Shown here piece by piece: positions 2,004-45,936 of a stretch of 64,000 nucleotides of DNA (position 1 is its first letter; every line of letters begins with the position of its first letter). The notes beneath the pieces are model-generated. The model was not told where the DNA came from, searched no databases, and saw only the letters and a list, made by a program, of their open reading frames with translations. Position numbers and translations under genes: made by a program. This DNA is from an uncultured Chloroflexia bacterium (lineage in GTDB: Bacteria > Chloroflexota > Chloroflexia > QHBQ01 > JADMIH01): contig CAWCNY010000002.1 in assembly GCA_963797095.1 (NCBI GenBank), positions 160,001 to 224,000 on the forward strand, read 5' to 3'.

Positions 2004-4389
<2,386 letters not shown>

Positions 4390-14854: not shown

Positions 14855-14868
14855 AGTCCCTGCTGCGT

Positions 14869-14961
14869 GCTACGCACTACGTACTACGTACCGCGTATTG
14901 TGTATTGCGTACTGCGCGATCATGCAAACAACGAAGTACGAAATACGCAGTACGCAATATG
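14869..14961. repeat. Palindromic period-7 repeat (TACGCAC/TACGCAG family) at the fabG-fabD junction
   Basis: TACGCAC-TACGTAC..., TGCGTAC..., TACGAAA-TACGCAG-TACGCAA. Confidence 0.75.
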
Positions 14962-15721: not shown

Positions 15722-15880
15722 TCTCGCCTCCGTTTGACGCGAGACAGCCGCCCATTGGCGACCGCATTATCTCTTTAGCGTCTACCATCGTTTCTTTCAT
15801 ATCTTTCGACAAAAAAAGCACCCTCACGGCTGAACAATACTCTCAACGCTGAGGATACTCCACTCTAAGTATACCGAGAA

Positions 15881-15909
15881 TATATACCAGATGGCAAGTG
15901 CCCTGTCAA
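15881..15909 (-). promoter_or_regulatory. Putative fab operon promoter
   Basis: TTGACA-17 bp-TATATA with TGn extension, immediately next to the IS insertion site. Confidence 0.4.
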
Positions 15910-15937
15910 CAGGTTGCTTCGGGGTGCGCGCCATCGT

Positions 15938-17513
15938 TTAGGCGACTTTTCTGAGAGGGCGAGTTTTGGGCCAGCATTGCTCCCACCTCTCACTGAGCAG
16001 TTCGGCTCTCAGTGTCAGCACCCCTTGTGCTCCTGGTTTGCTCCAACACATGCCTGCTCCCTTGAGACGGGCACCAATCAGCCGCTTGCATGCACTCTCC
16101 ACCGTGCCTGAACCAACTGGGAAGCCCAATGCCCGGTACTCGGAGTAGCGCATCCTCTCTTTGTTCGTCTGGAAGTAATGAATCTGCTCTCGTGCCGCTT
16201 CTCCCGCCTCCCCTTCACGTTTGCTCTCTCTGTGTAGAGCCACAATGACTGCTTCTACCCTTCCCTCCCATAATTCCTTCTCCCAACGCTTCACCCATCT
16301 TGCGGCGTCTGGTGTGCCCTGCCCGAAGATACCATTACCTGCTTGCCACAGGTGCTCCATGGCGTGATACCAGTCGAGTACCTCTACCCTGTTGGCAAAG
16401 TGCTCATCGAACTGTATCCAGTTGGTGGGTGCCCCATCTCCCAGACATACAACCTGCTCCTCAGGGCCTATCCCTCTCCTCCATGCTTCAGCACTCAACC
16501 GCTTTCCTGCCCGCTCCATCGAGCCGACCTCCGCCACATAGCTCTGATGGGTGGCTCTTGCCCCCTCTATCTCTCCTGCTTCGTTGTATGCAGGCTCGGC
16601 CCAAAACACCACTCCCGCTTTAGCGTCATGCCACCCATCTTCGTAGCGCACCTTGCCAGCGTCCAGCGTCGCCGCCCATGTGCCCAAGCCCAATGCTCCA
16701 TCTGCAACCTTTGAACCTTTCTGAGAGGTGGGACTTGCCCCTAGCGTTTGATCTTCTGCTTGCAAGCTCTCCTCTCCTCTTGCAAGCTCTCCTCTTGCAA
16801 GCTCTCCTCTTGCAAGCTCTCCTCTTGCAAGCTCTCCTCTCCTCTTGCAAGCTCTCCTCTCCTCTTGCAAGCTCTCCTCTCCTCTTGCAAGCTCTCCTCT
16901 TCTCTCCTCTTGCAAGCTCTCCTCTAATGTAAGCCCCCTCCTCTAATGTAAGCCCCCTCTGTTCAGTCATGCGCTCGGCTTCTCTTGGAGAGACCGACAT
17001 GCCAGTGAGTACCTCCACTGCATGTGCAGCCTGCTCGAAAGGCATCTGCACACCCAGCAGGCACACTCCTTGTTGCACTCCGTCCGAGAAGTGTTCCCGT
17101 GCGGGTATGCCTAGAGCCTCATCCAGCGGGTAGCGTCCGGTGCCACACCCTTTACAGTAGAAGTAACCTCTCTCCAATGTGACCGTGCCTACCCATGTTT
17201 GCACAGTGCGCCGCTGCTTACCCTTGTACTGGGGTGTCTGCCCGCAGTCACACTGCTTGTGCCCAAGCAGCCATTCTTCCTCTATCATGGCACGATGCAG
17301 TTGGGCTGCGGCTTCTAAGGCTGAGGCGAAACAGTCCGAGCGCAGTTGACGTGCTCTTTCTTCGAGACTGCTCAAAGTAGCATCCGGGTTGCGTTGAGCA
17401 TATATCCAAAGTTGTTTGACGAGCCCCTCAAATTCCTTCACAATACTAGTGAGGGAGGTACTAGTGAGGGCAGGTGACAGGTCGCAAACGGCCTGAAACT
17501 CGCTACTCTGCAT
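15938..17513 (-). pseudogene. ISKra4/ISLre2-type DDE transposase split by tandem-repeat expansion
   Basis: RGYFYCKGCG.GRYPLDEALG; GDGA, LDWYHA, YFQTN..RM.Y, PVGSGTVESACK; two frames joined across 16761-16958. Confidence 0.9.
16761..16958. repeat. Tandem array inside the transposase
   Basis: Nine TGCAAGCTCTCCTCT units (spacing 15, 20 or 25 bp) plus a 19-bp duplication CCTCTAATGTAAGCCCCCT x2. Confidence 0.95.
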
Positions 17514-17837
17514 GATACCCTCCAGGATTTCGGCCTTAGCCGGGATGTCTTCACCTAGAGGGTATCATTTTTCTTTCCTTCCTAAAAGATGGCGCGCACC
17601 CGTTGCTTCGTTGCTTCGCAGGGTCTATTCAAAGTCGGAGCAGGAGGGCGTTCTCCTTTAGAATAAGGTTGCAAGACCACAAAACTAAGGGAGAAATGCT
17701 TGAACACCTCATCGTCGGCAAGGGCCAACATCAAAGGCCCCGTCTTGATGGAGATTTTAGCTGGGATGCCTGATTTCCGCAAAGCTAAGTGAAGTTGAAG
17801 CTGAAGTAAGCAGACGCAAGCGTGCACTGAAGATCGT

Positions 17838-17880
17838 TCAACAAGAGAGGGACCGCAGTTGGCGGTCCCTCTCTTGTTGA
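17838..17880. terminator. Intrinsic terminator hairpin downstream of the gene fragment
   Basis: 19-bp perfect IR TCAACAAGAGAGGGACCGC / GCGGTCCCTCTCTTGTTGA. Confidence 0.8.
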
Positions 17881-17896
17881 TTTCGGGCGATACTCT

Positions 17897-18476
17897 TTAT
17901 TTCAGTGTAACCATCACAGGGATAGTGCCTGTGCCGCTGTCGAGTGCGCCAAGGGCCTTACCGATTGTAGCTCCTGATGCCAGTACGCGGTCGTTACCTT
18001 TGATCGCGTAGCCGGGGTTGGTGCTGGCTTTCTTCACAGTTACCACAGGGATTGAGCCCAGCACCGGTGGGCCGTTGCCTACGATTGTAACTATATCCCC
18101 GGCTTCCAGGGTATCCGTACCGGCGTTTTGCATAACGTCGACAACGTAACCGGCTTTGGAACCCGCCACATAGAGATTACCTTCCATCCTTACAGAGCCG
18201 TTTACCTCAAGGCCCGATGTGGGTTGCGTTGGGCCCAACGCAGTATCGACGAAAAGTGAATATGTGCCAGCATTATTCGACTTGATGTAACCGCCTCGGT
18301 AGTTACCGCTAGTCGCTTCAACGCCATATGAGCTGTCGCCGGAAGCAGAGCCCTTTAGAGCGGAGCGTGCTGCATCGGTGCTGCTGGAGTAAAGCCCCTT
18401 TCCGCCAATGAAATAACCCCCATAATCACCGGAAGGGCTGACTCCCGGGCGTGTTCCATTATAGTGTTTAGGAACG
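17897..18476 (-). pseudogene. 3' fragment of a Gly-rich surface/secreted protein
   Basis: Frame stays open upstream of 18238 (GVSPSGDYGGYFIGGKGLYSSS...YGVEATSG) with no start or RBS; C-terminus LEAGDIV...GATIGKALGALDSG.GTIPVMVTLK. Confidence 0.6.
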
Positions 18477-19771
18477 GATTATGGTACTGCAAAAGGCGGA
18501 GGTTACTGTCCCAGAAGCGGTTGATGAGTTTTGCAGAAGATGCAGCACCACACACTATGAAGGCAGCAAGCACTCCCCCTTCGCTCTTGTAGCCCCGTAC
18601 TGTATGAGAGCGCACTTTGCCGTTGCCTATCATCTGCTCAGTCAGGTTGTTGGTGGCAGGCACTCCCAATTGTACTCCCTTCTCGGTCAGATAGAGGCGA
18701 TACTTGCGCCAATTCTCCATCAGTTGCACGATCAGCCTGGCCAAGCTCTGTAACGGTGTGTCTTGTTCCCGACGCTTGCGGTGTCCGCACTCCTTTTGGA
18801 CTGTTTGCCACAACTCCAACAGCCGCTCATCCCCCTTCTGGGGCATCTCCTCCACTAACCATCTCACTTCAGCTAGCACTCCCGGCCACACGGGCCAATC
18901 CTCCTCCACAGATAGTTTCTTCTCCAGGTCAAGCAGTGCCTTGCCTACCCACCTCAGCATATGGAAACGGCACAACTGCCTGCCCACCTGCAGTTCTTCT
19001 TCTACAGTGTTGTAGGTGGTCAGATCATCGGTGACAATCACCTCTACCCCTAACTCTGAGACCAGCGGGCGGAGCCAGCGGCACACTGCCTGTGGGTCAT
19101 TCTCATCTACTACTTCCATAGAGACCATCTGCCCGTTAGAGACCATCTGCCCGTTAGAGACCATCTGCCCGTTGCCCATGTCCACAGCCACCATTACCCC
19201 TGTGGTCTCCCCATTCAGGCGTATCCATGCCCCATCTACTCCAAGTACTCGCACCTTGTGCTTTTGTTGCTGGGCTTTGGCTCTGTGGCGTAGCTTCTTC
19301 CCTTTCTCCTTCCCTTTCTCCTTCCCTTTCTCCTTCCCTTTCTCCTTCCCTTTCTCCTGCACTACTCGCCAACCACTCATCCTACCTATCCTCATGCCCT
19401 CGCCAAAAGCTGAGAAGATGACGCCTACTCCCCGCAAACTCAACCCCATCGCCCAAGCCATTGCTGCCAGGCATCTCAGCCTTTGGCTCATGTCCGCTTT
19501 ATCTACACCTTGTGGATACCAGCGGAAGGTGTGCTTACACTGTGCATTGGTACACCTGTAGCGATTAGCGATACACCTGTAGCTCTTCCCATTCGGTGTC
19601 TCTTAGTGGTTTGGAGGCGATGCCCCACTTTTGCAATATCTCACATGAGCACTTGGGACACTGACGAGGACGACCACAAGAGGCCGGATTGAGATTGACA
19701 CAGGGTAGCTGAATGCGGACAATTGCCATGAGCAGGTGCTCCTTGTACTGGTTTGGTTTGGTCACCTCCAT
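18355..19771 (-). pseudogene. DDE transposase interrupted by a 7-bp duplication; frame reads through the IR
   Basis: CPKC...YRC..C zinc ribbon; LGVDG, IVTDD, QLCRFH, TNNLTE; TAGCGAT x2 at 19559-19572 creates a stop. Confidence 0.85.
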
Positions 19772-19860
19772 ATTACAAGGCTCCTGCTCGTTTCTCTACC
19801 CTTTCTTTTCTCGCTTTTCTGCCTCTTTCCTTACACTTCCACCGCTCCTGGGACAGTTAC
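18502..19860 (-). mobile_element. Insertion sequence with Zn-ribbon + DDE transposase (IS6/ISH6-like; family uncertain)
   Basis: 20-bp IRs GT(T/A)ACTGTCCCAG(A/G)AGCGGT (18/20) at 18502-18521 and 19841-19860. Confidence 0.85.
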
Positions 19861-20000
19861 GTTGCTTCTTGCGCATTTATCTGTTGAATCACAGAGGCAT
19901 AGAGGTTTTGTTGGGAACACGAAGGTATGAAGGTAGGCGAAGGACACGAAGGGTTCTTTTGGTCGCTTTGTAAGAGTGGACCGCACCGATAGGTGTACCC

Positions 20001-21788
20001 CTACAATTGCGTGAGGTATGCCTCGAACAGGGAGGGCCGTTCCAGGACGTAGCCTTCGAGCACGGGCAGGAGGGACTTTACGTCTACTCGGCCAGTGCCG
20101 AGGGCTGATGCTGCCAGTTGTTCGGCTTCGCGCAGGTCTATTCTCTTTTCGGGGGCTGCCTCCAGCGCCCGAGCGAGTGTGGCGCGTACGATTTCGATTG
20201 CCGCTTTGGATAGGAGGCCCACGCCGGGGACGTAGGTACAGTCGTCTACGTCCAGTTTCTGTGCCAGATTTAGGAGTTCGGTGCGCGAATAGGCTTGCAA
20301 TCGCTCCGCTACTTCTGTTTCAGGCACGAAGCCGCTCGCCCTGGCCTCGGTGCGAATCGCTTCCAGCTGACCATGCGCTGCTTGCTGGCGGGCCTCAACA
20401 GTGCCGTAATCGCGGTCAAGCAAATTGAGCAGATCGGTCGCCACCACTTTGTTCTTATAGGGCACCACGGGGAAAGGCAGCCCCTCGAATATGGCAAGCG
20501 CCTCCTGGGGCACAGCAAGGATCATCGGCTCGTATCCTTCGTGAGCGGCCAGCGACTTCAACTTGGCGACCTTGCGCTCGCGGTAGCCGGGCGACCAGAA
20601 CCCCGCTATCTCCATGAAAACATGCGTGTCGCCTCGCCTGAAACCGAAATCGGGTATAAGCACCACACCCGGCGCGAGCAGCGGCTCAGGCTCGCGCTGT
20701 AGCATCCAACCATGCGTGTAGCCGCCCTTCTGAAGCGATATATATTCCTTATAGAGCCGGGCTTCTACAAGGCTGTCGAATGTCGGCTCTTCCGCTGCGC
20801 TCACCTCGTCGTGGGTTATAGCTGTTCCGACTGAATATGCCGCCGTAGTTTCGGCCACACGACCTTTATTCATCTCGGCATCCTGGGGCGCGTAGCCTAG
20901 CCTGGCAAGCATTTCGGGCGTGACGTGGAAGCGATAGTTACGGTCATACAGGATCAGGTAGGCAGTAGCCGTCACTTCCGCGCCGTCAGGCATAGTCAGG
21001 AGGGTGCGCACCAGGTCGAGCGCCACGTCTGCCAGGCGTCTGCCGTATTTGTCGGCTGTGCCGAACGCCTGCTCAGGTCCGTAGAGGGTGAGCAGGAACC
21101 CGCCCGCCGACTGCTCGATATCGACAAGCACTCCACGCCGCTTCGCCAGGAAGTAGACCCGCTTCAGCGCCGCGCCCGGCAGCCTGCTCATGGCTACCTC
21201 AACACGGGTGGCGTGTGCCAGCAGGGTCTTGACCGCACCCCGATTGTACTGGGTGAGCACATCGCGCGGTTCGGGACGCTCGCCTGTGCGCGTGAGCACC
21301 GCCACGCCTTCCGAATCGAGGTTCGCCAGCGCGTCTACCAGATTTGGGTCGGGGGGAAGGCCCCACTTGCCCGCCAGCGTCGCCAGCAAGAGGTCGCGCT
21401 TACCGGGTGAAGCGAACCCTCCATAGGTGGTATTCGCCTCGTCCCAGATCGCGAACCGCACATCAGAGGCGCTTTCGATCCCCTGCCCTTTGAGCGCCGC
21501 TATCTGCGCCGCGGTGAGCACATCCGCGAAGGTGGGCTGGACGAAAGAGTAGCGCGTGAAAAGGCATGCTTCCACGCAACGCCCCAGCCTGTAGTCGCCC
21601 ATCACGGCTTCCAGCGCGCCTGTATCGTACTCGCTACGCATCTTGCCAACAGAATCTTCGCACAGGTTGGTCGCCTGCTCTAGCTCTCGCAGGGCCGCGC
21701 GCCCGTGCAACAGCTTCGGCACAACCGCGAATTCGCCATAGGGGTCGCGCACTGTGCGGCGCTTGAGGTTGGTGAGTGAAAAGAGCAT
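20001..21788 (-). CDS. DUF790 family (Bax1-like) endonuclease
   Basis: YNR...TLL, LYGP..F...KYG..LA, TFDSLVE, REPEPL, IPDF, EIAGFWSPGY..RK. Confidence 0.88.
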   Translation of the reverse strand: MLFSLTNLKRRTVRDPYGEFAVVPKLLHGRAALRELEQATNLCEDSVGKMRSEYDTGALEAVMGDYRLGRCVEACLFTRYSFVQPTFADVLTAAQIAALKGQGIESASDVRFAIWDEANTTYGGFASPGKRDLLLATLAGKWGLPPDPNLVDALANLDSEGVAVLTRTGERPEPRDVLTQYNRGAVKTLLAHATRVEVAMSRLPGAALKRVYFLAKRRGVLVDIEQSAGGFLLTLYGPEQAFGTADKYGRRLADVALDLVRTLLTMPDGAEVTATAYLILYDRNYRFHVTPEMLARLGYAPQDAEMNKGRVAETTAAYSVGTAITHDEVSAAEEPTFDSLVEARLYKEYISLQKGGYTHGWMLQREPEPLLAPGVVLIPDFGFRRGDTHVFMEIAGFWSPGYRERKVAKLKSLAAHEGYEPMILAVPQEALAIFEGLPFPVVPYKNKVVATDLLNLLDRDYGTVEARQQAAHGQLEAIRTEARASGFVPETEVAERLQAYSRTELLNLAQKLDVDDCTYVPGVGLLSKAAIEIVRATLARALEAAPEKRIDLREAEQLAASALGTGRVDVKSLLPVLEGYVLERPSLFEAYLTQL

Positions 21789-23200
21789 TACGACTTGCGC
21801 CTGCTGGCGATGTTTTCCTCGGTAGTTTCCTCTGTCACTACCTCATAGAGGACCGCTTGCGATTGCTTGGGGCGGAGGATGCGGCCCAGCCTCTGTATGA
21901 ACTCGCGCTTGGTGGCGCTGCCGCTCAATATGATCGCTACATTGGCGTCGGGTATATCGACCCCCTCGTTCAGCACACGGCCCGTCGCCAGCTTGGTGAA
22001 GCGTCCCGACCTGAAGCCGTCGAGGATCGCTTTGCGCTCGGCTGGCGGTGTCTTATGCGTCACCGAGGGCACGCAGTAGCGGTCGGATACCGTGTCGACC
22101 AGCGCATTGTACTCTGAGAAGACAAGCACCCGGTCGTCGCTGTGCCTTTCCAGCAGTTCGCCCACTATGTTGAGCTTGCCGCTAGCGCTGAGGGCGATCT
22201 TGCGCGCTGCCTGGTGCGCCAGCAGTGCTTCGCGGGCGGCGGGGTCGTTGCCGCTCCTCAGGATCAGGTGGCGCTCGTAATCGCTGCCGGACCTCATGCT
22301 GATATGATGCCTTCGCAGAAAGTTCCTGTATATCCCGGCGGCCTGCTCGTAGCGTGCGCGCTCCTCGTCGCTCAGGGCCACCGGGATGCGCTCGGTGCGG
22401 TAATCCGCGATGTGGCGTCCCTCGCGCAGGTGGGCGGGGAGGCGCTCGTACACTACAGGCCCCACGAGGCGATCCAGGTCGGCGTGACGCAGGTCGCTTC
22501 GCTCAGGGGTGGCGCTCAGGCCGAGGCGGGCGGTGGCGATTGAGCCTTCAGCCACTGTGCGATAGGTGTCCGCCGGCAGGTGGTGTACCTCGTCGAACAC
22601 GAGCAGCCCGAACCCTTGCAATGAGCGCATGTGTATGGCCGCCGAGTCGTATGTGACCACCGTCACGGGGCGCAACTCTTTATCGCCGCCTCCCCACACG
22701 CCGACCTCTTCTTCAGTGAGATTAGTGTTCGACAGCAGAGATGCGCGCCACTGCGCCAGCAGATCGAGGGTGGGCACGCAAATTAGGGTGGTGGTATTGA
22801 GCGCCGCCAGAGCCGTGAACGCCACCAGTGTCTTGCCCGCGCCCGTTGGTAGCACGACCACGCCCTTATAGGCGGCTGCCTTCCACGCCTCCAACGCCTC
22901 CGCCTGGTATGGCCTCGGCTGCATGTCTACTTCTACGGCGTGGGGTAGGGGCGGGCGTAAATCGAAGCTCTTCTTGAGCGCGTAATGGGCGCGCAAGGCT
23001 GCGCAGATGGCTAGATAATCAATAGGTAGGGCGCGCAGGCACTTACGCCGCGTGTCATGCACGATGCGACCGCGCCAGCCCATTTCGCTCAATTCCGCGT
23101 GCAACTCTTCGGGCGTGATACCTTCGGGCGGGAAGAGCAGGAGGTCGTTGGCGGCGAGCGCCAGCGTGATTGCGGGTTTGGGGTTCTTGCCTGCTGTCAT
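21788..23200 (-). CDS. XPB/Rad25-like superfamily 2 DNA helicase
   Basis: RPYQ Q-motif, LPTGAGKT, DEVHH, LSATP, NEGVDIP, QRLGRILR; stop overlaps the DUF790 start. Confidence 0.92.
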   Translation of the reverse strand: MTAGKNPKPAITLALAANDLLLFPPEGITPEELHAELSEMGWRGRIVHDTRRKCLRALPIDYLAICAALRAHYALKKSFDLRPPLPHAVEVDMQPRPYQAEALEAWKAAAYKGVVVLPTGAGKTLVAFTALAALNTTTLICVPTLDLLAQWRASLLSNTNLTEEEVGVWGGGDKELRPVTVVTYDSAAIHMRSLQGFGLLVFDEVHHLPADTYRTVAEGSIATARLGLSATPERSDLRHADLDRLVGPVVYERLPAHLREGRHIADYRTERIPVALSDEERARYEQAAGIYRNFLRRHHISMRSGSDYERHLILRSGNDPAAREALLAHQAARKIALSASGKLNIVGELLERHSDDRVLVFSEYNALVDTVSDRYCVPSVTHKTPPAERKAILDGFRSGRFTKLATGRVLNEGVDIPDANVAIILSGSATKREFIQRLGRILRPKQSQAVLYEVVTEETTEENIASRRKS

Positions 23201-24081
23201 AGTTCGTGGATGGCGGGGATGATCTCCTGCCGGAACGGGTCGAGCGTGGCGGGATCATCGATGTTGGGCACGCTGAGGTGGAAGTAGTCGAAGCCGAGCG
23301 CGGCCAACTGGCGGGCGTGTTCGATTACCAACTCGGAGGAGAGTTTGCCCGAATCGTCCCGCATCGCTTTCTGGTCGGCGATCACTGTTTTGCTGATGGC
23401 GGAGTAGGGGCGGCCTTCGGCCTCGCAATGGCCGCGCAACACATCAAGCTTGTGAGTGAGCCATTCGCTGCCGTGGTTGGCGAAGAAGTTGCAGGCGTTG
23501 GCGTACTTCGCTACATAGCGAAGGGTTTTGGTTTCGCCGTGTCCGCCCACCAGGATTGGAGGGTGGGGCCCGGTGATGGGCTGGGGTGAGCAGAGGGTTT
23601 CGGTGAGGGTGTAGTGCTTGCCTTCAAAGCCGACGGCGCGACCTGACCACATGAGATGTGCGATTTGCAGCGTTTCTTCGAGGCGTTCGAGGCGGTCTTT
23701 GACGGGGGGGAAAGGCACGCCGAGGCCCAGGTGCTCACGCTCGAACCAACCCGCGCCGAGGCCGAGCCACGCCCTCCCGCCTGAAAGGACATCCAGCGTC
23801 GTGACGATCTTGATCAATATGCCGGGGTGGCGGTAGGTGACGCCCGACACCATGACACCCAATTCGATGCGCGATGTCTGCCCAGCGATGAAGCCGAGCG
23901 TGGTGTAGGCTTCGGGCATGGGGTCTCTCAGGTTGCCGAGCGTCTGGAAAAAGTGGTCCATGACCCAGATGCTATCGAAACCCGCTTCTTCTGCACGCTT
24001 GGCGATTGCCCCTGTTATGGGGCCGATTCGTGCTGGGCCGCCATCCCAGGCGAATTGTACGAGTTGTAAGCCGATCTTCAT
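23197..24081 (-). CDS. LLM-class F420-dependent oxidoreductase
   Basis: GFDSIWVMDHFFQ, TYRHPG, TTLDVLSGGRAWLGLGAGW, PPILVGG. Confidence 0.92.
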   Translation of the reverse strand: MKIGLQLVQFAWDGGPARIGPITGAIAKRAEEAGFDSIWVMDHFFQTLGNLRDPMPEAYTTLGFIAGQTSRIELGVMVSGVTYRHPGILIKIVTTLDVLSGGRAWLGLGAGWFEREHLGLGVPFPPVKDRLERLEETLQIAHLMWSGRAVGFEGKHYTLTETLCSPQPITGPHPPILVGGHGETKTLRYVAKYANACNFFANHGSEWLTHKLDVLRGHCEAEGRPYSAISKTVIADQKAMRDDSGKLSSELVIEHARQLAALGFDYFHLSVPNIDDPATLDPFRQEIIPAIHEL

Positions 24082-24094
24082 GGTGGGAAGTTTG

Positions 24095-24156
24095 TCGGTA
24101 GTCGGTAGTCGGTAGTCAGGAACCAGGAACTTGGGACTTCCGGCTACCGGCTACCC
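24095..24156. repeat. Composite period-7 repeat (GTCGGTA + GAACCAG families)
   Basis: GTCGGTA x3, CAGGAAC units, CGGCTAC x2. Confidence 0.7.
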
Positions 24157-25502
24157 TCCATCCGCCTGGCTTTCGCCTGCACACGCAGGAGCCTGTGCTC
24201 CAACTCTGCCCGCTCAACCGCGTTGGTGGCTCGTGTCTGGGCCATCAGGGTGTACTCGATGGCGGTCATATAGTTGCGGGCGCGATGCTCGTAGTGCTTG
24301 GCAAGCTCCAGGTAGGGGAACATCAGGTGCGTGCCCTCGGAGGCCAGCCGCGCCCAGATCGCCACGGCTTCGTCGCGCTGTTGGAGGTGCTTATACAGGT
24401 AACTGAGGCGGCGCAGTATCGCGTTGCGTATCTCAGGTGAGGGACGCAGCGACAAGGCCCGCTCGAAGGCTCGCAGGCTATCGGTGTACTTGCCCATGTC
24501 CTCGTACAGCTTGCCCAGCCCGAATAGCTCGCTGGCCTCCAGGTCGGCCTCGTCCGGCCTGTCCAGTATGCGCGACACGTGCCCGGTCAGCGCCACCAGC
24601 GTCAGCAAGTCATGCTCATTGTGCTCAAACACTGGCAGCACATGCCCTACGTGGTTCGCCCGTAGGTACTGGAAATAGAGGGATGGTATGCGCCACCCCG
24701 GCACATCAAACCCGCGCCGGAAGCCAAGCACGTTGCTCTCCAGCGTTTCCAGAGAGCACGACTCGAACCTGTCGCGCCACAGCCTGCGCGATGGGTGTAG
24801 CATATCGAGGTGTGGTGGGTCGCGCAGCACGCATTTCAAGCGCGTGTAAATATAGCGCGTCTCAAGCAGAGGCCAGTCGAACGTCTTGCCATTGAACGTG
24901 ACCACCGCCTCGAACCGCGTAAAAAGGTCGTTGAGAGCGCGTAAGAGGGCTCTTTCGGCGGATACATCGCTCAGGAAATACTGGCGTACTACCAGTTCAT
25001 CACCCGTGTCTGAGAAGAAGGCCACCCCCACCAGGAACACATAGGTGCCTGTGCCCCCCGATAGCCCTGTTGTCTCCGTATCGAGGAAAAGGAGCTTGCG
25101 CGGGTGGATATCGCGTAGGGAGGGGGCTTTGCCTACCTCCCACAACATGGTGGGGCGAGCGTGCAGGAGAGCCCCGAGATACACAGGTCCGCGAGTCAGC
25201 GTGACCGCGAATTTGCGCTCCACGTAGTAGCAAGGCCCATCGTCAGTTTCGTGCCATTGTCCGGGTAAAGCTTTGTCGATCGTGCTTGCAGAGCGGACGA
25301 AGGACGAGGGCCGAAGGACGGACGACGACAATTCTGGTGTGAAGCGTGGACCGACGAAAGGCGAAGTAACGTCGTCTTTCGTCTTTCGGCCTTCGTCCTC
25401 CAGCCCAGGCTCGTACTCGGCCACGCCATCAGGTGGCAAGGGGGTCGCGCCCGGTACACGAGGGCGCACACCCATAGCTTTTAGCCGTTCTCGAAGGTCC
25501 AT
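24144..25502 (-). CDS. YprB/MrfB-like RNase H-fold exonuclease with TPR repeats
   Basis: FLDTETTGL, TFNGKTFDWP, HLDMLH, HNEHDL, ELAKHYEH; TPR-like helices. Confidence 0.9.
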   Translation of the reverse strand: MDLRERLKAMGVRPRVPGATPLPPDGVAEYEPGLEDEGRKTKDDVTSPFVGPRFTPELSSSVLRPSSFVRSASTIDKALPGQWHETDDGPCYYVERKFAVTLTRGPVYLGALLHARPTMLWEVGKAPSLRDIHPRKLLFLDTETTGLSGGTGTYVFLVGVAFFSDTGDELVVRQYFLSDVSAERALLRALNDLFTRFEAVVTFNGKTFDWPLLETRYIYTRLKCVLRDPPHLDMLHPSRRLWRDRFESCSLETLESNVLGFRRGFDVPGWRIPSLYFQYLRANHVGHVLPVFEHNEHDLLTLVALTGHVSRILDRPDEADLEASELFGLGKLYEDMGKYTDSLRAFERALSLRPSPEIRNAILRRLSYLYKHLQQRDEAVAIWARLASEGTHLMFPYLELAKHYEHRARNYMTAIEYTLMAQTRATNAVERAELEHRLLRVQAKARRMEGSR

Positions 25503-25834
25503 CGGTCAGGGATCGGAAATAACGAGTGACGAGTGACGAGCGGTGTTGCTCGCCATTGTGGTAAGTGTAGCACAAATGACCGAAAAAGAGCAAAGGTTAT
25601 CCACACTATGGGTGTTCTTATCGGGTGTTCTCATCGCGTGCGTATTCTCCAGCCACAAGCGATAACGCTGTCGCATGAAGCCCCTGAAATATGCTCCCTA
25701 CTCCCTGAGTCCCATTCCGCATTCCACACTTCGCACTCCGAACCAGGAAAAACTGTACCAAAGCACACCCAAAACCTGTCCAGTTTTGCCCCACCAATGT
25801 CATTGAGTTAATGGAGGCCAAGAATGACCATATT

Positions 25835-25863
25835 TTGACTCACTCATGTTGATCTGGTACAAC
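25835..25863 (+). promoter_or_regulatory. Putative sigma70 promoter
   Basis: TTGACT-17 bp-TACAAC with TGn extension. Confidence 0.5.
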
Positions 25864-25918
25864 AGGGCGAACCTATTGGTACGTCCTGGCATACCTACGC
25901 AGCAGGAGAGGAATAATC

Positions 25919-28855: not shown

Positions 28856-28897
28856 AGATATTTATCAAACGAATCAAGAAAACTACTCGTTTTATCG

Positions 28898-28927
28898 TTG
28901 ACATCTACTAGCAGCGGTTGCTACAAT
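28898..28927 (+). promoter_or_regulatory. Putative sigma70 promoter
   Basis: TTGACA-18 bp-TACAAT with TGn extension. Confidence 0.6.
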
Positions 28928-29138
28928 AGACATACTTTGCCGCTGACAGGTATGCGGACGCGGATGTTCCTATTTTGGGCAGGCTGAAGATCCTCCCATT
29001 GTCTTAAGCCTGCTTGATATGCATCAGCATGCATTGCTTGCATTTCGTTACCTGTTACTTCACTTATTATGTGTTACCTCACGCGGCATGTCTGTTTGTT
29101 CGTTGCACATGTAGGAAAGGATAGGAGAGAATACGGTA

Positions 29139-32100
29139 ATGGCATACAAACCCAGAACCACCGCCCCTGGCGACGGGCAGGGCATTGAGCGACCGGCAGA
29201 GAAGGGCACCCGGCGTGCTTTCTACCTGCTGGCCGCGTTGTTGCTCGCCATCGGCGGCATAGCCATAGCGATCCGCATGACCACCTCCCAGGCCGGCGTG
29301 CAAGTTTCCCAGCCTCCGCGCGTCGCAGGCGACGTGCCGAAGGACGAAGATGGAGATAATGCCTACTCTGCCAACCCGGGGCAAGTGCCCGTCGGCGGTG
29401 ATGAAAGCGCATCCCTCCATAATATCGAGGACTACTGGCTAACTCGTATCAGCTACCCGACCGGCAAGTTCGACACCCGGTGGGTGGTCCAGGCCTCCGA
29501 GCAGGACAAGAACATACAGGCACGCGTGCCCGCAGGCCAGGTTGTCTACCAGCGCGGCGAGTCGCCCCTGGCGCTCGACCCCAACGCCTGGATCTCGCTC
29601 GGCCCTCAGCCTGAGCAGAGTGATGGATGTATCAACTGTTATGCTTATGGGCACGTTTCAGGCCGCGTGAACGACATCAGGATTGACCCGGTCAACACCA
29701 ACGTGGCCTATCTCATCCCTGTTGGTGGAGGCGTCTGGAAGACGACAAACTGCTGTTCTTCTTCCACCACCTGGGCCCCTGTCACCGATGACCCCCTTAT
29801 CTCGGTGGTCACCGTTGACGACCTTTCTATCGACCCCAACGACCACAACACCATCTATGTCGGCACGGGCGACCTCAACTATGGCTCCTTCTCGATGGGC
29901 AGCGCCGGTATCCTCAAGAGCACCGACGCTGGCGCGACCTGGGCTATCAAGGGCGCTGATGTTTTCACCCCCTACTTCCCTGAGCCCGCTGGCCAGTTCC
30001 CACAATACCAGGCAGTGGGCAAGGTAGAGGCCGATCCCAACAACTCCAATACCGTGATTGCGGGCACCAAGACCGGCGTCTTCATGTCGTATAACGGCGG
30101 AGATACCTGGACAGGGCCCTGCGTTACGAACGCATATACCACCCAGCGCCAGGACGTTACTGGCCTGATCCTCAGCGATTCGGGTGCGTTTACAGATATG
30201 TATGTGGCGGTTGGCACGCGTGGCTTCAGCACCACCGTCCAGTACAACCTGGCCGAAAACGGCGCTAACGGTATCTACAAGGCGCAGGTCCCGACGAGCG
30301 GTTGCCCGAGCGGCTGGAACCTCATTACCCGCTCTGACAACGGCTGGCCCACCGGCACAGGATCAGGCATCCCAGTTTACCAGTCAGGCGGCGACACTCT
30401 TGGCCGTATCGATATGGCCATAGCCCCCAGCGATCCCAACTACCTGTACGCTATCGTGCAGGCTATCAACCCCACCAATAACCGCGGTGGCGTGCTCGGC
30501 GTGTGGCGCACTACCGATGCTGGAACCACCTGGAACCAGCAGGCAGGCGCGGGCAACTCCTCCTCCGAGTGGCAAGGTTGTGCAACTGCGGGCACCCAGA
30601 ACTGGTACAACCAGCACATAGCGGTTGATCCACTCGACCCCAATACGGTGCTCGCGGATACGATAGACATATTCAAATCCACAAACGGGGCCGACACATT
30701 CACCAACCTCAGTTGCGGCTACAATGGAGGGCGCGTCCACGTAGACCAACATGCCCTTGAATACGTTCCAGGCCAGTCCAGCGTGCTGCTGTCCGGTAGT
30801 GACGGTGGGGTCTATGTCTGGACCGGCATGAACACGGGCAGTCCCAGCTACACTCAGGTAAACGACTCGCTCAATACGATCGAGTTCTACTCAGGCGACA
30901 TTACTGCCAACTTCGCCAACTCCAGCACCCCTGGTGCTAACGCGGGCGCTCAGGACAACGGTTCGTCCGTCTACGTGTGGCCGAGCAACAATGTAGGTCC
31001 CGCCGTGTGGCAGTTGCGTAAAGGCGGTGACGGTATGTTCGCCCGCATCGAGCCTGTGCTAGGCCAGCGATGGTACCAGGAGAGCCAGAACGGTTCTCTG
31101 GCGGTTACCACGGCGGGCGCGTATAGTTCACAGGTGAACGCTACCGGCGGCTGGGGCGGCGACCGCCTCAGCTTCGTATTCCCTTATGAGATCTTCAAAG
31201 GGAATCCTAGCGGCCCTGCTTCTCAGGACTGCGCTCCCACAGGCTGCACCCACATGATCGCGGGCAGCTACCGTGTATGGGAGACTATTCAGGGAGCCCA
31301 GCCGACTTCAAGCTGGCTGATCAACAGCCCCGACCTGACCAAGAACACATTGGCCGACCGCTCCATAATCAACCAGTTGGCCTACTCGCCGAGCATCTCA
31401 ACCACAGCCATCGTCGGCACCAACGACGGTAATGTGCAGTACGGTTTCAACCTCGGCCAGGGTGTCGCCAACTCCGCTACCTGGGTCAATGTGACGGGCA
31501 GTAACTCCGTCCTCCCCAACAGGCCCATGCTCGACGTAGCCATCGACCCTTCCAATCCTCTAATCGGCTACGCTGCGGTTGGCGGTTTCGATGAGAACAC
31601 ACCAGCAACCCCCGGCCATGTCTACAAGGTGACCTGCTCGGCAAACTGTGGCTCTTTCACGTGGGAGAATAAGAGCGGCAACCTGCCCAACATCCCTGTA
31701 GATTCGATCATCGCCAATCCCAACTATCCACAGCAGGTGTTTGCCGGTACCGACTGGGGCTTCTACTTCACGGACGATATCACGGTAGGTTCGCCTGTGT
31801 GGTACAAGTTCAATAGCAATCTGCCTAACACCATGATCTGGGACATGTCAATCGACCGTGGTGCTACCACCCTTGCCATCTTCACACGCGGTCGCGGTGC
31901 TTACGTATGGCCTCTGCCCACAGGCCCGTTCGGCGCGACCCCCACCCCCGGCGCGGCTACACCAACCTCTACCCGCACCAATACACCCACCAACACTATT
32001 GCGCCCACCAGCACGCGCACAAACACCCCGGTGCCTACCGGCGTCGCAACCGATACGCCCACCAATACTCCGGTTGGAGCAACCAGTACCTCAACTAACA

Positions 32101-32918
32101 CACCGAGCAATACTGATACACCGCTGCCTACGCAAACTCCAGGCGGCCCAACGGCCACTCCTGAACCGTCCAACACCTCTACGAATACGCCTGTGGCGTC
32201 CAGCACGCCCGGTGCGACCAACACAGCAGCCCCCACGAATACGCCGGGAGAGGTGACAGCTACCCCCACAGCATGTACCCTTGAGTTCACCGATGTGCTG
32301 CCTGGCTCAACGTTCTACGACAACATCAAGTGCCTGGCTTGTAGAGGCATTATCAACGGCTACTCGTCAGGCTGTGATACAGGTAACCCTTGCTTCAAGC
32401 CTGCTAACCTGGTCACCAGGGGACAACTCGCAAAGATAGCCTCCAATGCTGCTGGCTTCAACGACCCAACAGGTCCTCAGCAGTATGAAGATGTGCCTCT
32501 TGGCTCTACCTTCTTTGAGTACATCTGGCAGCTAACCATCAGAGGGTATGTCAACGGCTACCCTTGTGGTGGAGCAGGAGAACCGTGTGGTGCAGGCAAC
32601 CTGCCGTACTTCAGACCTAATGCGAACATCACGAGAGGGCAAATCTCGAAGATAATCTCGAATGCAGCAGGGCTGACAGCACCGGCAGGCTCTCAGCAGT
32701 TCCAGGACGTGCTGCCAGGGTCAACATTCTACGAGTACATCTGGAGGCTGACAGCATTGGGAGTGATGAACGGGTACGCATGTGGAGGAGTGGGAGAGCC
32801 ATGTGTAGGCCCTGCCAACCTGCCATACTTCAGGCCAGGCTCCAATGCCACCAGAGGACAGGCGAGTAAGATAGTGGCTAACACATTCTTACCCGGTTGC
32901 CAGACACCATCGAGGTAG
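29139..32918 (+). CDS. Surface protein with BNR/Asp-box (GH74/sortilin-like) beta-propellers, Thr/Pro linker and SLH domains
   Basis: [40 protein letters not shown]; SLH cassette. Confidence 0.88.
32204..32908 (+). repeat. 705-bp SLH-encoding cassette, copy 2
   Basis: Direct repeat of 28138-28842 at an offset of 4066 bp. Confidence 0.92.
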
Positions 32919-32965
32919 CATGAGGTAAGATGGGGTAGCATCTTGTAGCTACTTCTACTAGGGAC

Positions 32966-33011
32966 AAAGAGGAAGGACGAAGGCATCAGCACCTTCGTCC
33001 TTCCTCTTTTT
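32966..33011. terminator. Intrinsic terminator between convergent genes
   Basis: AAAGAGGAAGGACGAAGG / CCTTCGTCCTTCCTCTTT followed by a T run. Confidence 0.8.
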
Positions 33012-33031
33012 ATCCTTTCTCGTACTTTGTC

Positions 33032-33463
33032 TTATGCCTGGGCCTCTTCCTCAACCTCTGCTTCGGTTTCCGACTCTGCCAGTACGCTGCTCATGTGCGC
33101 AAGGCCCTCATCGATCCATTGGCGTAAGTGGTCGGCGGGCATGGATCCAACGCCCTGTGCGTACACCGTTCGCCCGGAGATGAGCATGAAGGTCGGGATG
33201 CTCTCTATACGCAAGGCCCCGGCGACGCCTGGGCTTTCATCTACATCAAGCTTGGCGAACTTGACCTTGCCCTCATAGTCGGGGGCTACTTCAGCGAAGA
33301 TAGGACCCATGATTTTACATGGCCCACACCACTGCGCCCAGAAATCGACCAGCACCGGAGTACCTGTTTCCAGCACCTCCGGTATGAAGTCTTCGTCTGT
33401 TACGATATGGATCTTGCCGTCGGCGGTGCTCGTTGGAGCAAAATCGGTATTATTGGTTTCCAT
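33032..33463 (-). CDS. trxA: Thioredoxin
   Basis: PVLVDFWAQWCGPCK, KLDVD, SIPT. Confidence 0.9.
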   Translation of the reverse strand: METNNTDFAPTSTADGKIHIVTDEDFIPEVLETGTPVLVDFWAQWCGPCKIMGPIFAEVAPDYEGKVKFAKLDVDESPGVAGALRIESIPTFMLISGRTVYAQGVGSMPADHLRQWIDEGLAHMSSVLAESETEAEVEEEAQA

Positions 33464-33596
33464 TTTCTATATACTTCCTTTCTTTTATACAGGCTTCTAA
33501 TATATCGCTTTACCAGAGCGAATTATGTCCATACTAGATTATAATACTCCTGCCCTTAAAAACCAAAGAAGAAGAATCTGAAAGGAGATTCAAATC

Positions 33597-34322
33597 ATGG
33601 CAGGTATTGGCAGAGATCTCAAGATCACCTGGTATGGTCACGCTACCTTCGTATATGAAACTCCCGGCGGCAAGCGCATCATGATCGATCCCTGGGTGCG
33701 GGGCAACCCTTCTTGTCCCGATGACCTTAAGCATGTCGAAAACCTCGACGCCATACTTATTACTCACGGTCACTTCGACCACATACAAGACCTCCCCGAA
33801 GTTGCACGCACCTCCGAGCCTGACACGGTGGCCTGTATATTCGATATGAACCCGTGGCTGGAAAAGAAAGGCGTCAAGAACGTTGTCGGCTTCAACAAGG
33901 GCGGAACCGTTGACGTAGTTGGAGTGAAAGTTACTATGGTGCACGCCGATCACTCGTGCGGCATCACCGACGATGATGGCTCCATTATCTACGGCGGTGA
34001 GCCTGTAGGATACCTCCTGGAGTTGGAAAACGGCCTCAAGGTCTACCAGTCGGGCGATACGATGCTTTTCGGCGATATGCGCCTGTACGGCGAGTATTTC
34101 CGCCCCGATATAGCGGTCCTCCCAATAGGGGATTTCTTCACAATGGACCCGCGACAGGCCGCCTATGCCTGTGAGATGCTGGGCATCCGGCAGGTGATCC
34201 CTAGCCACTACGGCACTTTTCCTGTCCTCACCGGCACGCCCGACAAACTCCGCGAGCAACTTCAGGCCAGGAATTACGCGTGCGAGGTGCTCACGACCAC
34301 TCCCGGCGGGACCATAGAATAG
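33597..34322 (+). CDS. UPF0173-like MBL-fold metal-dependent hydrolase
   Basis: ITWYGHA, IDPW, THGHFDH, SGDT, LPIGD..TM, IPSHYGTF. Confidence 0.92.
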   Translation: MAGIGRDLKITWYGHATFVYETPGGKRIMIDPWVRGNPSCPDDLKHVENLDAILITHGHFDHIQDLPEVARTSEPDTVACIFDMNPWLEKKGVKNVVGFNKGGTVDVVGVKVTMVHADHSCGITDDDGSIIYGGEPVGYLLELENGLKVYQSGDTMLFGDMRLYGEYFRPDIAVLPIGDFFTMDPRQAAYACEMLGIRQVIPSHYGTFPVLTGTPDKLREQLQARNYACEVLTTTPGGTIE

Positions 34323-34330
34323 TGCGGGAG

Positions 34331-35431
34331 CTACCGCAACACGACAGGTAAGCCGATAAATTTGCCGTAACGCTCTGCCGCGACGGCCAGGGCCTGGGTT
34401 TCGGCCTCGTTCAACGGTGCGTACATCTTCGTTTCGATACTAACCTGGCTCCTATTCAAGGTACGCTTCCAGAAGCCCACGCCCTGGCCGTCGACCACGA
34501 TCAAATTGCCGAAAGGCACATGCTCGCGCGAGGTAGCCACCCTTTCGGCCTGCTGCGCATCGAAAAACGCGCTGCGGTCCTTATAAGCAACCCCGTATTC
34601 GTCATAGTTGGGCAATAAGTACGCAACCGGAGATGCACCCTTTGCCCTCGCAGGCGGGGCTGGCGCATGCCGTGAAAACCAGTAGGTCTGTTCATCTATG
34701 TCCTCGCTCACAAGTTCAGGCTCCAGTATCCGGACCCCGGCCTTCGCATCGGCCATAGTCAGCCCCGACCACCAGACGAAGTCCTGCAACGTGGCGGGTC
34801 CATGGCTAATGAAATACCTCCTGGTGAGTTCGGATAACGCTTCCTCGCGCTCCAGGGTTCTGGCGTTGGGCGCTCGCTCCTCGAGCAACGCGTATGTGAA
34901 ATCTTTGCCCCGCCTGGCACCACTGCAAATGATCCCATCCACTTCGGCGCGTACCAGCATGTGAACAGCGCGCATGCCCTCCGAATCGATCCCTGCTTGC
35001 TTGAGTGCTGCAATCAATTCGGGGCGGGTGAACTGTTTACCGCCCTGTAGAGCCTTCGCCAGCACCTCGTTGCTTCGCATGAACAGGGCATCATCCAATC
35101 CAAACTGCCTGTAATAGTAGGCGGTAGCGGCGTGAACACGCGGGCCGGTTAGGGCGAGCAGCCAGCGTATATCGGAGGGGGTGACAAAGTGCCAGGTGGG
35201 ACGCATGACGTGCGTGCGCAGTATATCACCACGGGTAAATGCCTGCTCGAGATCGTGGTCGGTGATGCCCAGGCTCTCCGGCAAGCGCTGGCCGACCGCC
35301 CATTTTGCCGCTGCGTAGTCCTGGGATTGGACAGCCCCCAGCCATTCCACCACTTGGTGCGGCTTATCGAACGCTTGCAGGGTGAGTTGATGGTTATGCA
35401 GCCGCCGGTGAGTTATGTCGGAGTTTGTCAT
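34331..35431 (-). CDS. AlkZ/YcaQ (HTH_42) family DNA glycosylase
   Basis: AVQSQD (QxQ), RTHVMRPTWH, HGPATLQDF.WWSG, LLPNYDEY; start moved past the heptamer repeat. Confidence 0.9.
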   Translation of the reverse strand: MTNSDITHRRLHNHQLTLQAFDKPHQVVEWLGAVQSQDYAAAKWAVGQRLPESLGITDHDLEQAFTRGDILRTHVMRPTWHFVTPSDIRWLLALTGPRVHAATAYYYRQFGLDDALFMRSNEVLAKALQGGKQFTRPELIAALKQAGIDSEGMRAVHMLVRAEVDGIICSGARRGKDFTYALLEERAPNARTLEREEALSELTRRYFISHGPATLQDFVWWSGLTMADAKAGVRILEPELVSEDIDEQTYWFSRHAPAPPARAKGASPVAYLLPNYDEYGVAYKDRSAFFDAQQAERVATSREHVPFGNLIVVDGQGVGFWKRTLNRSQVSIETKMYAPLNEAETQALAVAAERYGKFIGLPVVLR

Positions 35432-35638
35432 CTGCGAGTTCCTGGTTCCTGGTTCCTGATTTCTATGTTTTATGTGAGATTTCTTATGCGCTTTGGATAT
35501 CAATGTCCAATGATTGTGACATCTCTAACATGATATATGACATCCATGACCGTCCGCAATACAGGCAATGTAGGTAACAGTTCAGAGTTAGGATAGAGCG
35601 TACCGGAGTAGGGGCACCCTTTATGGCATTGACTCCAA

Positions 35639-37152
35639 CTAATTCCTGAGGACAGGGCGAGGAGCACAATTACGGTGGGCATAACGAGGGGGCCGCAGGA
35701 GCACCAAATCGGTGGGCATTGGCACCAATTGCTTGGGATCAACGGTAGGAGCACTTACTTTGGTGCGAGTAGAGGCACGGATGAAGCCCAACTCTCGTCC
35801 ATGCTCTACGAACACACGCACAGGGTCCTCTCCCGTGTATGCATACTGCGGCAGGTAGCGCACCAACAACTCCATGCTCACTTCGTATGGGTCTACTTCC
35901 GCTCGGCCTGCCATCTCCAACCTCAAGCCTTGCAGCACCTGAGAGATAATCAGTACTGCCAACACCTGCTGCTGTACCACTATCGGTTTTGCTCCCCACA
36001 GCATGTGCAATCCCAAATGGCGCTTCACCAACTTGAAGGCCAACTCGATGTCCCACCTCCTTGCGTACAAGCCAGCTATCTGCCCTATGGTCAACTTGGT
36101 GGGGTCCAGCACCGAGGTGATGTAGCGATACTCGGTGTTGCCCACTACAAAGCGCACCGGCCGCACAGCATGTGCCGCTCAATCCGCTCTGTATGCCCCA
36201 AGCCACACTACTCCATCCAACACCTCGATATTGCCTGCTCGGTCTGTGCTCTCAAAGAAGGTATGCACTACCTCATAAGAAGTGCGCTCTAGAGGTGCGC
36301 TCTCGCATGCGGCTAATCCACTGCGGCTAATCCACTGCGGCTAATCTACCACACCTTGCGTTGGGTCAACCAGTCGAACAGTTCAAAGCCAAGGCAGCCC
36401 AAGTCCATCAACACCAGGCTCTCTCTTGGAAGCTCTTCCAACATGTCGCGTGCTGCCACTTTGCTGTTCTGGTGCGGGTCCTCTGCGGGTCCTCAATGTG
36501 TTGTATCCGCTCCCACTGTTGATGACGCAGGTTGAACAAAGCAGCCACTTTACCCCCAACAACTCCTTGCTTGTATTGGGCTGGGTTCGCAAGGCAGGGA
36601 GCAGGCGGGCTACTTTGTCAAGGGTAGTCTCATCGAGCCACAGCACCGCACTGGCAAAGGGGGCCAAGCCTTTCTCCTGGTAGGGAGCCAGCTCCTGGTA
36701 GGGAGCCAGGCGGTGAGCCAATACCGAGTGTACCTGAGTAAAGAGGCGTTGCAACGGCTCAGTACCCTCCTGCTCCAGTCGTTTGTATACAGCCTGGTCA
36801 GAAAGTGCAAACCTGGGGTAGAACCAGAAATTGCCCGCAGAGAGGAGCCGCCACAGATCGACGCCACAGATCGACGCCACAGATCGACGCCACAGATCGA
36901 CGCCACAGATCGACGCCACAGATCGAGTTGACTGCTCAAGCCCCTGGCCACACATGTCAGCAATCCAGCCCACAAGCACATCGAAGGGAGCACTCGTGGA
37001 CGGCCTGGACCATCATGTGCCATCTCTGCCTCGTCAGGAGGCATTTGGCGTATCATTTGCTCCAAGAACGCCTCAATTTGGCCTATTACTTGTTGGTTTT
37101 GTTGGTTTTGCTTATCAGGCTGATTGTTTTCTCTGTTTGTCTTCACCCCCAA
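35639..37152 (-). pseudogene. IS4-family transposase, multiply frameshifted
   Basis: GPGRP..LPS..LWAG, LDETTLD, YARRWDIELAFK (YREK motif); 13-, 14- and 18-bp tandem duplications. Confidence 0.88.
36849..36926. repeat. 13-bp tandem repeat x6 inside the IS4 transposase
   Basis: CGCCACAGATCGA x6, no spacers. Confidence 0.95.
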
Positions 37153-37481
37153 ACTATACCAAAATGCTCTTCTTTGAATTAGTTGGAGTCAATGCCACCA
37201 GGGGTGCCCCTACTCTTCTTCTTACCCCCAATCCGAGCTGTAACTATATAGGTGGGGAACTGGACTGGTGGGTGGTAACGCGCCTCTATGCCTGAAAGGT
37301 GCGCCTCCCAGTGTATGGGTGAGTGGGCGCACTCTTATGAGTGAGCGTTGAGGTGCATGGTGCATACCTTTGCATCATGGCCCCCATTTATCTCATAATA
37401 GGATAGTTCCCGTCTCCGCATCTGCTAGGGTCCAACCTACCCTCACCTATCTACTTCTCTACTTTTTCCTCGATTGACACA

Positions 37482-45796: not shown

Positions 45797-45936
45797 GACG
45801 AGGGACGAAGGATGAAGGATGAAGGACGAAAGTAGTCGGTAGTCGGTAGTCGGAGGACGAGTGACCAGTGACCAATGACGAATGACGAGTGACCAATGAC
45901 GAGTGAATAAGCAGTACGCAATACACAATAGGCAGT
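45797..45936. repeat. Composite period-7 array of four different heptamer families
   Basis: GACGAAG/GATGAAG, GTCGGTA, GACCAAT/GACGAGT and TACGCAA blocks in succession. Confidence 0.8.

Follow-up and report, generated by a model that had tools for sequence, protein, structure and literature searches.

Three unrelated insertion sequences (ISs) in the genome of an uncultured Chloroflexia bacterium each carry several short tandem duplications, which raises the question of whether some process duplicates mobile DNA in particular or whether these elements reflect what happens to the genome as a whole. The elements lie in a stretch of 64,000 nucleotides, referred to here as the window, that covers positions 160,001 to 224,000 of contig CAWCNY010000002.1 of assembly GCA_963797095.1 (G000:C2:160001-224000 in our notation, G000 being the 6.02-Mb genome of 8 contigs, 58% G+C and 93% completeness); coordinates without a contig name are those of the window. 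We call the elements IS1, IS2 and IS3 in their order along the window, and these labels do not denote the IS families of those names. IS1 (15922-17601) is an ISKra4-family insertion sequence, IS2 (18502-19860) is the single-copy relic of a DDE transposon whose transposase has an N-terminal zinc ribbon, and IS3 (35627-37195) is a single-copy, decayed element, probably of the IS4 family; all three, and the arrays within them, are given on the minus strand. A preliminary description of the window had suggested that duplications may be focused on multicopy or mobile DNA. Our analysis points instead to a tendency toward tandem duplication that is genome-wide and typical of the lineage and that, combined with relaxed selection, probably explains the arrays.

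Distribution of Tandem Duplications in the Genome

Perfect tandem duplications with units of at least 10 bp number 419 genome-wide, compared with 6 in a genome simulated with a second-order Markov model, a baseline that was scanned only to units of 40 bp. After overlapping rows had been merged and units made of similar heptamers set aside, there were 325 non-heptamer loci. Multicopy DNA accounts for 57 of them; of those in single-copy DNA, 151 are coding and 117 intergenic according to our own rough gene caller. Insertion sequences were mapped with eight transposase Pfam families, whose 127 matches, each extended by 800 bp, merge into 105 IS loci. On this map, 270 of the 325 arrays fall outside IS DNA. 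Array density is 232 per Mb in IS DNA (55 arrays in 237 kb), 143 per Mb in non-IS intergenic DNA (113 in 788 kb) and 31 per Mb in non-IS coding DNA (157 in 4.99 Mb). Sixty-five of the IS loci are free of arrays; one array is present in 31, two in six and four in three. Two of the three loci with four arrays lie in the window, and the preliminary description was therefore drawn from the genome's extreme.

The length of the repeated unit differs between coding and intergenic DNA. Multiples of three make up 115 of the 151 units in coding DNA vs. 41 of the 117 in intergenic DNA (Fisher p = 1.7e-11), and this frame bias is a signature of selection, as expected if purifying selection acts on a uniform input. 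Ordinary genes tolerate in-frame duplications, as the window itself illustrates at 56993-57082, where a perfect 30 bp x3 array lies in frame inside a 586-aa open reading frame (56289-58046) with a weak CBM-like match.

The tendency also appears to belong to the lineage, judging from 400-kb samples, one per comparison genome, that are indicative only. Non-heptamer arrays number 14-35 per 400 kb in this genome, 9 in a genome of the same genus (G127), and 2 and 0 in two genomes of other families of the class (G010 and G090). Perfect 7-bp arrays are abundant as well (1518 in the genome vs. 339 simulated), and the same-genus sample is also rich in them. In the window, heptamer arrays resembling short tandemly repeated repetitive (STRR) sequences stand at gene boundaries at 4321-4381, 4790-4863, 14866-14959, 25295-25397, 45797-45906, 48369-48404 and 62899-62922.

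A screen for duplications whose removal joins two reading frames was set aside as general evidence: it gave 108 hits, 19 of them in IS DNA, but random deletions also pass in 35 of 1500 cases, and the hits are mostly heptamer arrays at gene boundaries. We used it only for units of at least 10 bp and for the 7-bp pair of IS2 described below.

The only other locus as dense in arrays as those of the window is L087 (G000:C6:790300-796100), a nest of IS fragments with IS66-like, ISKra4-like, IS110 and rve matches that holds four to five different duplications (11, 10, 18, 14 and 17 bp).

Arrays of the Three Window Elements

Arrays in the window were located with Tandem Repeats Finder (TRF) and with our own list of perfect tandem repeats. 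Every array named in the preliminary description was recovered in place with 100% matches, by TRF or, for the 7-bp pair, in the perfect-repeat list, and TRF added three more: 36473-36494, an imperfect array at 36278-36303 and a near-perfect one at 17444-17475. The window arrays lack counterparts in relatives and homologs, which indicates that they are derived insertions. The earlier statement that the inverted repeats are well preserved also held, for IS1, for IS3 (19 bp, perfect) and for IS2 (28 nt at 82%). Its claim that some of the duplications inactivate the transposase needs a correction with regard to IS3, which was not broken by duplications alone.

Membership of IS1 in the ISKra4 family is indicated by an intact sister copy (L083:174-1685), which scores 269.7 bits on NF033572 (cut-off 205); the N-terminal fragment of the window copy matches PF06782. 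The genome contains nine full copies with common ends, each carrying the terminal inverted repeat, and different flanks, and all but one are bordered by 8-9-bp direct repeats of the target. These nine copies are independent insertions. At the window copy, the same nine bases abut both ends (15913-15921, given without strand, and 17602-17610), and beyond the right target duplication stands one more 8-bp copy of this sequence (TRF 17601-17618); IS1 seems to have landed in or beside a small pre-existing tandem duplication.

The transposase linker of IS1 holds a hypervariable minisatellite of 15-bp and 20-bp units (16759-16918). TRF reports a complex 15/20-bp array at 16759-16925, within which 16772-16840 is 15 bp x4.6, and a 19-bp tandem duplication lies beside the minisatellite at 16919-16959 (x2.2, 100%). 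The latter is present in four of the nine copies (those of the window, C5, C1 and C4), absent from four and ambiguous in C6:22358. In total, the window copy has an excess of 198-29 = 169 bp, precisely the number of extra bases counted in the preliminary description. The near-perfect 15-bp duplication at 17444-17475 (TRF period 15, 2.1 copies, 94%) is private to the window copy, where it forms a 15-column insertion in the nine-copy alignment that none of the other eight shares. Apart from it, the nine copies differ outside the array at only 8 substitution columns. The array itself is present as 8 different alleles of 94-213 bp, in which sub-patterns recur from copy to copy, as descent would predict.

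Array length decides whether the transposase is encoded in one frame or two. A single open frame is found in just two of the nine copies (C6:890785-892400 and C6:53110-54725), in which the array has six 20-bp units (149 bp) and the frame runs for 520 aa from stop to stop, or 503 aa from the first ATG. The other seven copies are split in two frames, which in the window copy overlap and measure 312 and 334 aa. In a descriptive sense, the array amounts to a de facto toggle of the frame, and the in-frame copies would be the active ones. The proportion in frame is not above the one third expected by chance.

The 40-aa repeat encoded by the array is missing from all seven ISKra4 homologs compared, including a 464-aa paralog in the same genome, and the insert sits just ahead of a linker whose length varies among homologs. 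IS1 was not found in 25 other genomes of the family, one of which contains short end fragments only. Since the homologs lack the array and the element was not found in those genomes, the array is young and not conserved. IS1 itself is a young element.

The left end of IS1 was also found as three separate fragments, each 640 bp long and 99.7-100% identical to the window copy (G000:C1:518920-519560, C2:907525-908160 and C3:1-640). All three end at one internal point, corresponding to window position ~16560, which points to a truncated or chimeric derivative that has spread in its own right.

The same array behavior as in IS1 is shown by a pair of IS110-family copies, L085 (G000:C1:484300-486600) and L086 (G000:C5:324700-326800), which carry an in-frame 15-bp unit x15 in one copy and x4 in the other. 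In both copies, which are already split in two frames, the repeat falls within a conserved C-terminal domain motif.

IS2 is bounded by inverted-repeat arms at 18502-18529 and 19833-19860, and no second copy was found in the genome. It matches no IS family model above cut-off; the IS66, IS6, ISL3 and IS1 family models are reached only below it. Membership in IS66 finds no support in a close homolog (P0001), which scores 53.6 bits on NF033517 (cut-off 180) and matches the IS6, ISL3, IS256-variant and IS1 models about as weakly, and the window frame reaches PF03050 just at cut-off, with 23.1 bits. Its protein has 153 homologs, typically of 364 aa, of which six (77-85% identical) were aligned. Two in-frame arrays, both 100% by TRF, are missing from all six: 18 bp x3.1 at 19119-19173, which adds 12 aa, and 12 bp x5.2 at 19297-19358, which adds 16 aa. 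The frame is split by the tandem pair of TAGCGAT at 19559-19572 (genome coordinate C2:179559, from the perfect-repeat list). As had been proposed, removing one 7-bp unit joins the frames, the joined frame growing from 415 to 477 aa, and the aligned homologs read straight through the site. According to the alignment and the DNA, read by eye, the IS2 frame continues beyond the end point of all six homologs, and for this reason its stop codon looks to have been lost.

IS3 also lacks a second copy in the genome. Its ends, 35627-35645 and 37177-37195, form a perfect inverted repeat of 19 bp, and no target duplication was identified. Damage prevents the window copy from being scored whole, although one fragment reaches 27.4 bits on PF01609 (DDE_Tnp_1; cut-off 23). 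An IS4-like identity is also suggested by a relative in the same genus (G066, ~71% DNA identity) with an intact 473-aa frame, which scores 130.4 bits on NF033592 (cut-off 115). This relative has none of the five IS3 arrays located by TRF. An imperfect 13 bp x2 array (36278-36303) and the adjacent 14 bp x2.8 array (36308-36346) together correspond to a 41-bp gap in G066, a frame-shifting 11 bp x2 duplication (36473-36494, 100%) to an 11-bp gap, an in-frame 18 bp x2.0 duplication (36674-36709, 100%) to 18 bp of gaps, and a frame-shifting 13 bp x6.0 array (36849-36926, 100%) to a 65-bp gap. By tblastn, the frame changes across the last of these. When all five arrays are removed in silico, one more frameshift (near 36557-36617) and two in-frame stops remain. 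IS2 and IS3 are old, solitary relics in which several duplications stand alongside other damage. A gene for an AlkZ-like DNA glycosylase (34331-35503, 224 bits) directly adjoins IS3.

The window also contains decayed ABC transporter genes, consisting of a binding protein and pieces of a permease; TRF found no array in the region of this operon between 4863 and 8528.

Mechanism and Repair Genes

The arrangement that we favor begins with the duplication of short stretches throughout the genome, some of which would later expand by slipped-strand events. As for the molecular route, the arrays may have formed by replication slippage, or by tandem duplication that needs only short microhomology or none, and then have grown and shrunk. 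Duplications would persist where purifying selection is weak, as in intergenic DNA and in dead or dispensable ISs, and units that are multiples of three would persist in proteins that tolerate them. In IS1, a minisatellite probably arose in a length-variable linker of the transposase. Existing arrays change quickly, as the IS1 alleles and the IS110 pair show, and that of IS1 now outpaces base substitution, so that each copy sits randomly in or out of frame.

With regard to microhomology, 78 of 248 arrays of two whole copies have at least three extra periodic bases, vs. ~5% by chance, and the other 170 have 0-2, which is near chance; partial third copies confound this measure. The arrays are thus mixed in this respect, microhomology being evident in a minority only. 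Those of the window mostly have 0-3 extra periodic bases, the exception being the 14 bp x2.8 array of IS3.

The preliminary description had named an inventory of mismatch-repair and end-joining genes as a check. Such an inventory turned up MutS, MutL and two loci for ATP-dependent ligases; Ku was not found in the genome, which is 93% complete. The 5′ nuclease of Pol I is present in 121 of 121 genomes of the class, and RecJ and the large subunit of ExoVII are present in 17 of 17 relatives. These three tallies include two unpublished genomes (G013 and G031), and that of Pol I also includes a third (G097); G013 and G031 were among the genomes searched for IS1 and for relatives of IS3 too, but only the repair tallies rest on them.

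Two candidate sources of duplication were rejected. End-joining of staggered breaks was set aside, given that Ku was not found and that a third of the arrays show extra periodicity. Triplex-prone DNA was sought through purine/pyrimidine asymmetry, whose mean is 0.25-0.26 at the arrays vs. 0.22 in random segments, with no clear excess.

Alternative Explanations

One competitor is a duplication process that prefers IS DNA, such as a mutator directed against transposons or the error-prone repair of breaks in or near them, and several observations weigh for it and against a genome-wide tendency. IS DNA is 1.6 times as dense in arrays as non-IS intergenic DNA (232 vs. 143 per Mb, binomial p = 0.004, with arrays inherited by sister copies counted as independent), and the three richest IS loci have four arrays each. 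The 4 perfect arrays that IS3 holds within 1569 bp would be improbable if it had only the average density of IS DNA (Poisson p = 5e-4), and a nested group of dead ISs (C6:792427-795876) also holds four arrays; dead IS DNA looks roughly ten times as dense as average intergenic DNA. Among 32 array clusters listed, 12 lie in the IS map, and about half of the clusters of at least two arrays that include units other than multiples of three are in IS DNA, as read by eye. In recently duplicated DNA (at most 0.5% mismatches), the only new duplications of at least 10 bp are two in IS1 (19 bp and 15 bp), vs. none in 130 kb of recent non-IS duplicates, with 265 and 194 mismatch sites alongside; in a wider set of duplicates, taken at 95% identity, the IS1 array predominates. 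It also counts against a genome-wide tendency that no loss among the repair genes checked, which did not include a search for NucS, explains it, and that the decayed ABC operon is free of arrays, although no more than ~0.3 would be expected there at intergenic density. The array copy numbers come from the assembly alone. On the other hand, a multicopy trigger does not fit IS2 and IS3, which are single-copy, and a preference for IS DNA does not fit a genome in which 270 of the 325 arrays are elsewhere and 65 of the 105 IS loci are empty. The 1.6-fold excess counts inherited arrays repeatedly; when inheritance by sister copies is counted once (by hand), ~41 distinct IS arrays remain and the IS density comes near the intergenic one, so that the comparison of densities put forward in the preliminary description gave an excess at face value and near-equality after this correction. 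Two new duplications vs. none are far too few to decide the matter, and relaxed selection would lead one to expect this enrichment too. The break-repair variant is further weakened by the failure to find Ku for end-joining, and transposases cut the ends of an element, not its interior. We consider a process that prefers IS DNA improbable, and the focus on IS or multicopy DNA proposed in the preliminary description is not borne out. What the data favor is that description's own alternative, a genome-wide slippage bias with relaxed selection, in keeping with the low density in coding DNA (31 per Mb), the bias toward multiples of three and the excess in the same genus.

A different possibility is that selection maintains the arrays, or if not all of them then the IS1 minisatellite, as reversible on/off switches for throttling transposition, comparable to contingency loci. 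Alignment of all copies of each IS, named as a check in the preliminary description, did reveal different arrays in different IS1 copies (IS2 and IS3 being single-copy), and it speaks for a switch that the nine near-identical copies carry 8 alleles whose length determines the frame. The two copies in frame share one allele but occupy different sites and have separate target duplications, which is compatible with that allele having moved, and the array lies in a linker that tolerates changes in length. IS1 has one trait of a contingency locus, an in-gene repeat whose copy number sets the frame. Another trait, a repeat kept by selection, is not in evidence, as the homologs lack the array and no more copies are in frame (two of nine) than the third expected by chance; the array is young, being missing from all seven homologs of an element that was not found in 25 genomes of the family. 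Moreover, the arrays of IS3 accompany other lesions, arrays also expand in the IS110 pair that is already broken, and similar arrays occur throughout the genome. The idea of a switch thus survives for IS1 alone and as a description, and that such switches are selected is unlikely, if slightly less so than a preference for IS DNA. It is highly improbable that the arrays are artefacts of assembly or polishing. The genome is indeed metagenome-assembled, and exact-match scans of a metagenome collection found no independent contig with either of two left array junctions (that of the IS3 13-bp array and that of the IS1 array); the best two public read runs contain 0.42 and 0.41 of the words sampled from 15800-20000. 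Artefacts would, however, ignore reading frames, contrary to the difference in multiples of three between coding and intergenic units. Some arrays have since mutated (36278-36303 and 17444-17475), the IS1 alleles share sub-patterns as descent predicts, and an excess is also seen in a same-genus genome that was assembled independently, but not in two other members of the class. Finally, there are two related readings that we regard as rather unlikely, if somewhat less so than the selected switch taken by itself. In one of them, the IS1 minisatellite would be a heritable and reversible throttle of transposition, with the transposon bearing a contingency locus that curbs its own activity, in which copies would flip randomly between a dead two-frame and a live one-frame state while the family keeps a small, changing active subset. 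In the other, dead ISs would be a preferred substrate for duplication, which would account for the three IS loci at ~10 times the intergenic density.

Comparison with Known Systems

Repeats that change the frame of a gene are familiar from other bacteria. In Acetobacter pasteurianus, the number of repeats in hypermutable tandem repeats (HTRs) changes the frame of the C-terminal part of the product (PMC2761278). IS1 resembles these HTRs, as well as variable number tandem repeats and contingency loci, in that a repeat within the frame of a gene outpaces point mutation and alters the frame and length of the product. It differs from them in that the gene is a multicopy transposase, so that many allelic states coexist in one genome, in that its units mix 15 and 20 bp, and in that the differences observed are those between paralogous copies. 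Our literature search found no description of a frame-setting minisatellite in a transposase that differs between copies, although we do not claim that none has been published.

Transposases of the IS1 and IS3 families (here the families of those names) are produced by programmed -1 frameshifting. The window's ISKra4-type element is similar in that how much complete transposase is made hinges on passing from an upstream to a downstream frame. Unlike in programmed frameshifting, that frame is set by a heritable change in DNA length and not by ribosomal slippage at a conserved signal, although no search aimed at such a signal was made.

On the origin of the arrays, a recent preprint describes tandem repeats in all of life as being seeded by tandem duplications (bioRxiv 10.64898/2026.02.28.708716). 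As in the microhomology-mediated duplication described there, single-copy segments in this genome duplicate and some expand, and the mixture is comparable to what the preprint reports for reference genomes; in contrast to it, most two-copy arrays (170 of 248) have near-chance numbers of extra periodic bases. In Burkholderia pseudogenes, about half of the insertions form direct repeats (PMC6054270). Chloroflexus aurantiacus tops the bacteria in the part considered here of a survey's table of short-repeat satellites (PMC6749651), and our genome shares with the satellite-rich Chloroflexia and cyanobacteria of the survey a richness in short tandem repeats at the level of the lineage. Unlike STRR-like heptamers, the arrays analyzed here consist of unique, non-heptamer units of 10-45 bp drawn from the local sequence and not of a recurring set.

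If a genome-wide tendency is the correct explanation, there is no anti-transposon mutator, and a strong bias toward tandem duplication shapes the genome. Such a bias would decay mobile elements mainly by duplication, lengthen tolerant proteins in steps of three bases, and in some cases could make a transposase gene switch on and off at random. The genus would be a good natural system in which to measure the birth and expansion of bacterial tandem repeats, and the nine ISKra4 copies with their eight allelic states offer a ready test of whether frame switching limits transposition.

Additional Observations

Other kinds of array were noted outside the window. Arrays of a 24-25-bp palindromic unit, with up to 7.5 copies, occur at many sites, including G000:C2:787500, C3:797304, C3:958769, C4:557565, C8:129071, C8:165478 and others. 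Two arrays of 10-11-bp units, G000:C5:288754-288838 (7.7 copies) and C8:16717-16813 (9.7 copies), adjoin TnpB-type genes, with Cas12f1-like_TNB matches beside them at C5:288424-288624 and C8:17403-17603.

Among the repair genes, the profile match of the ExoVII large subunit is split in all 11 genomes of the genus (g1) that were searched, including this one (e.g., G000:C5:405638-406459). The match covers the profile from 1 to ~180 and then from ~214 to 314, and because it is split in this way, the ExoVII large subunits of the genus carry a divergent or inserted middle segment.

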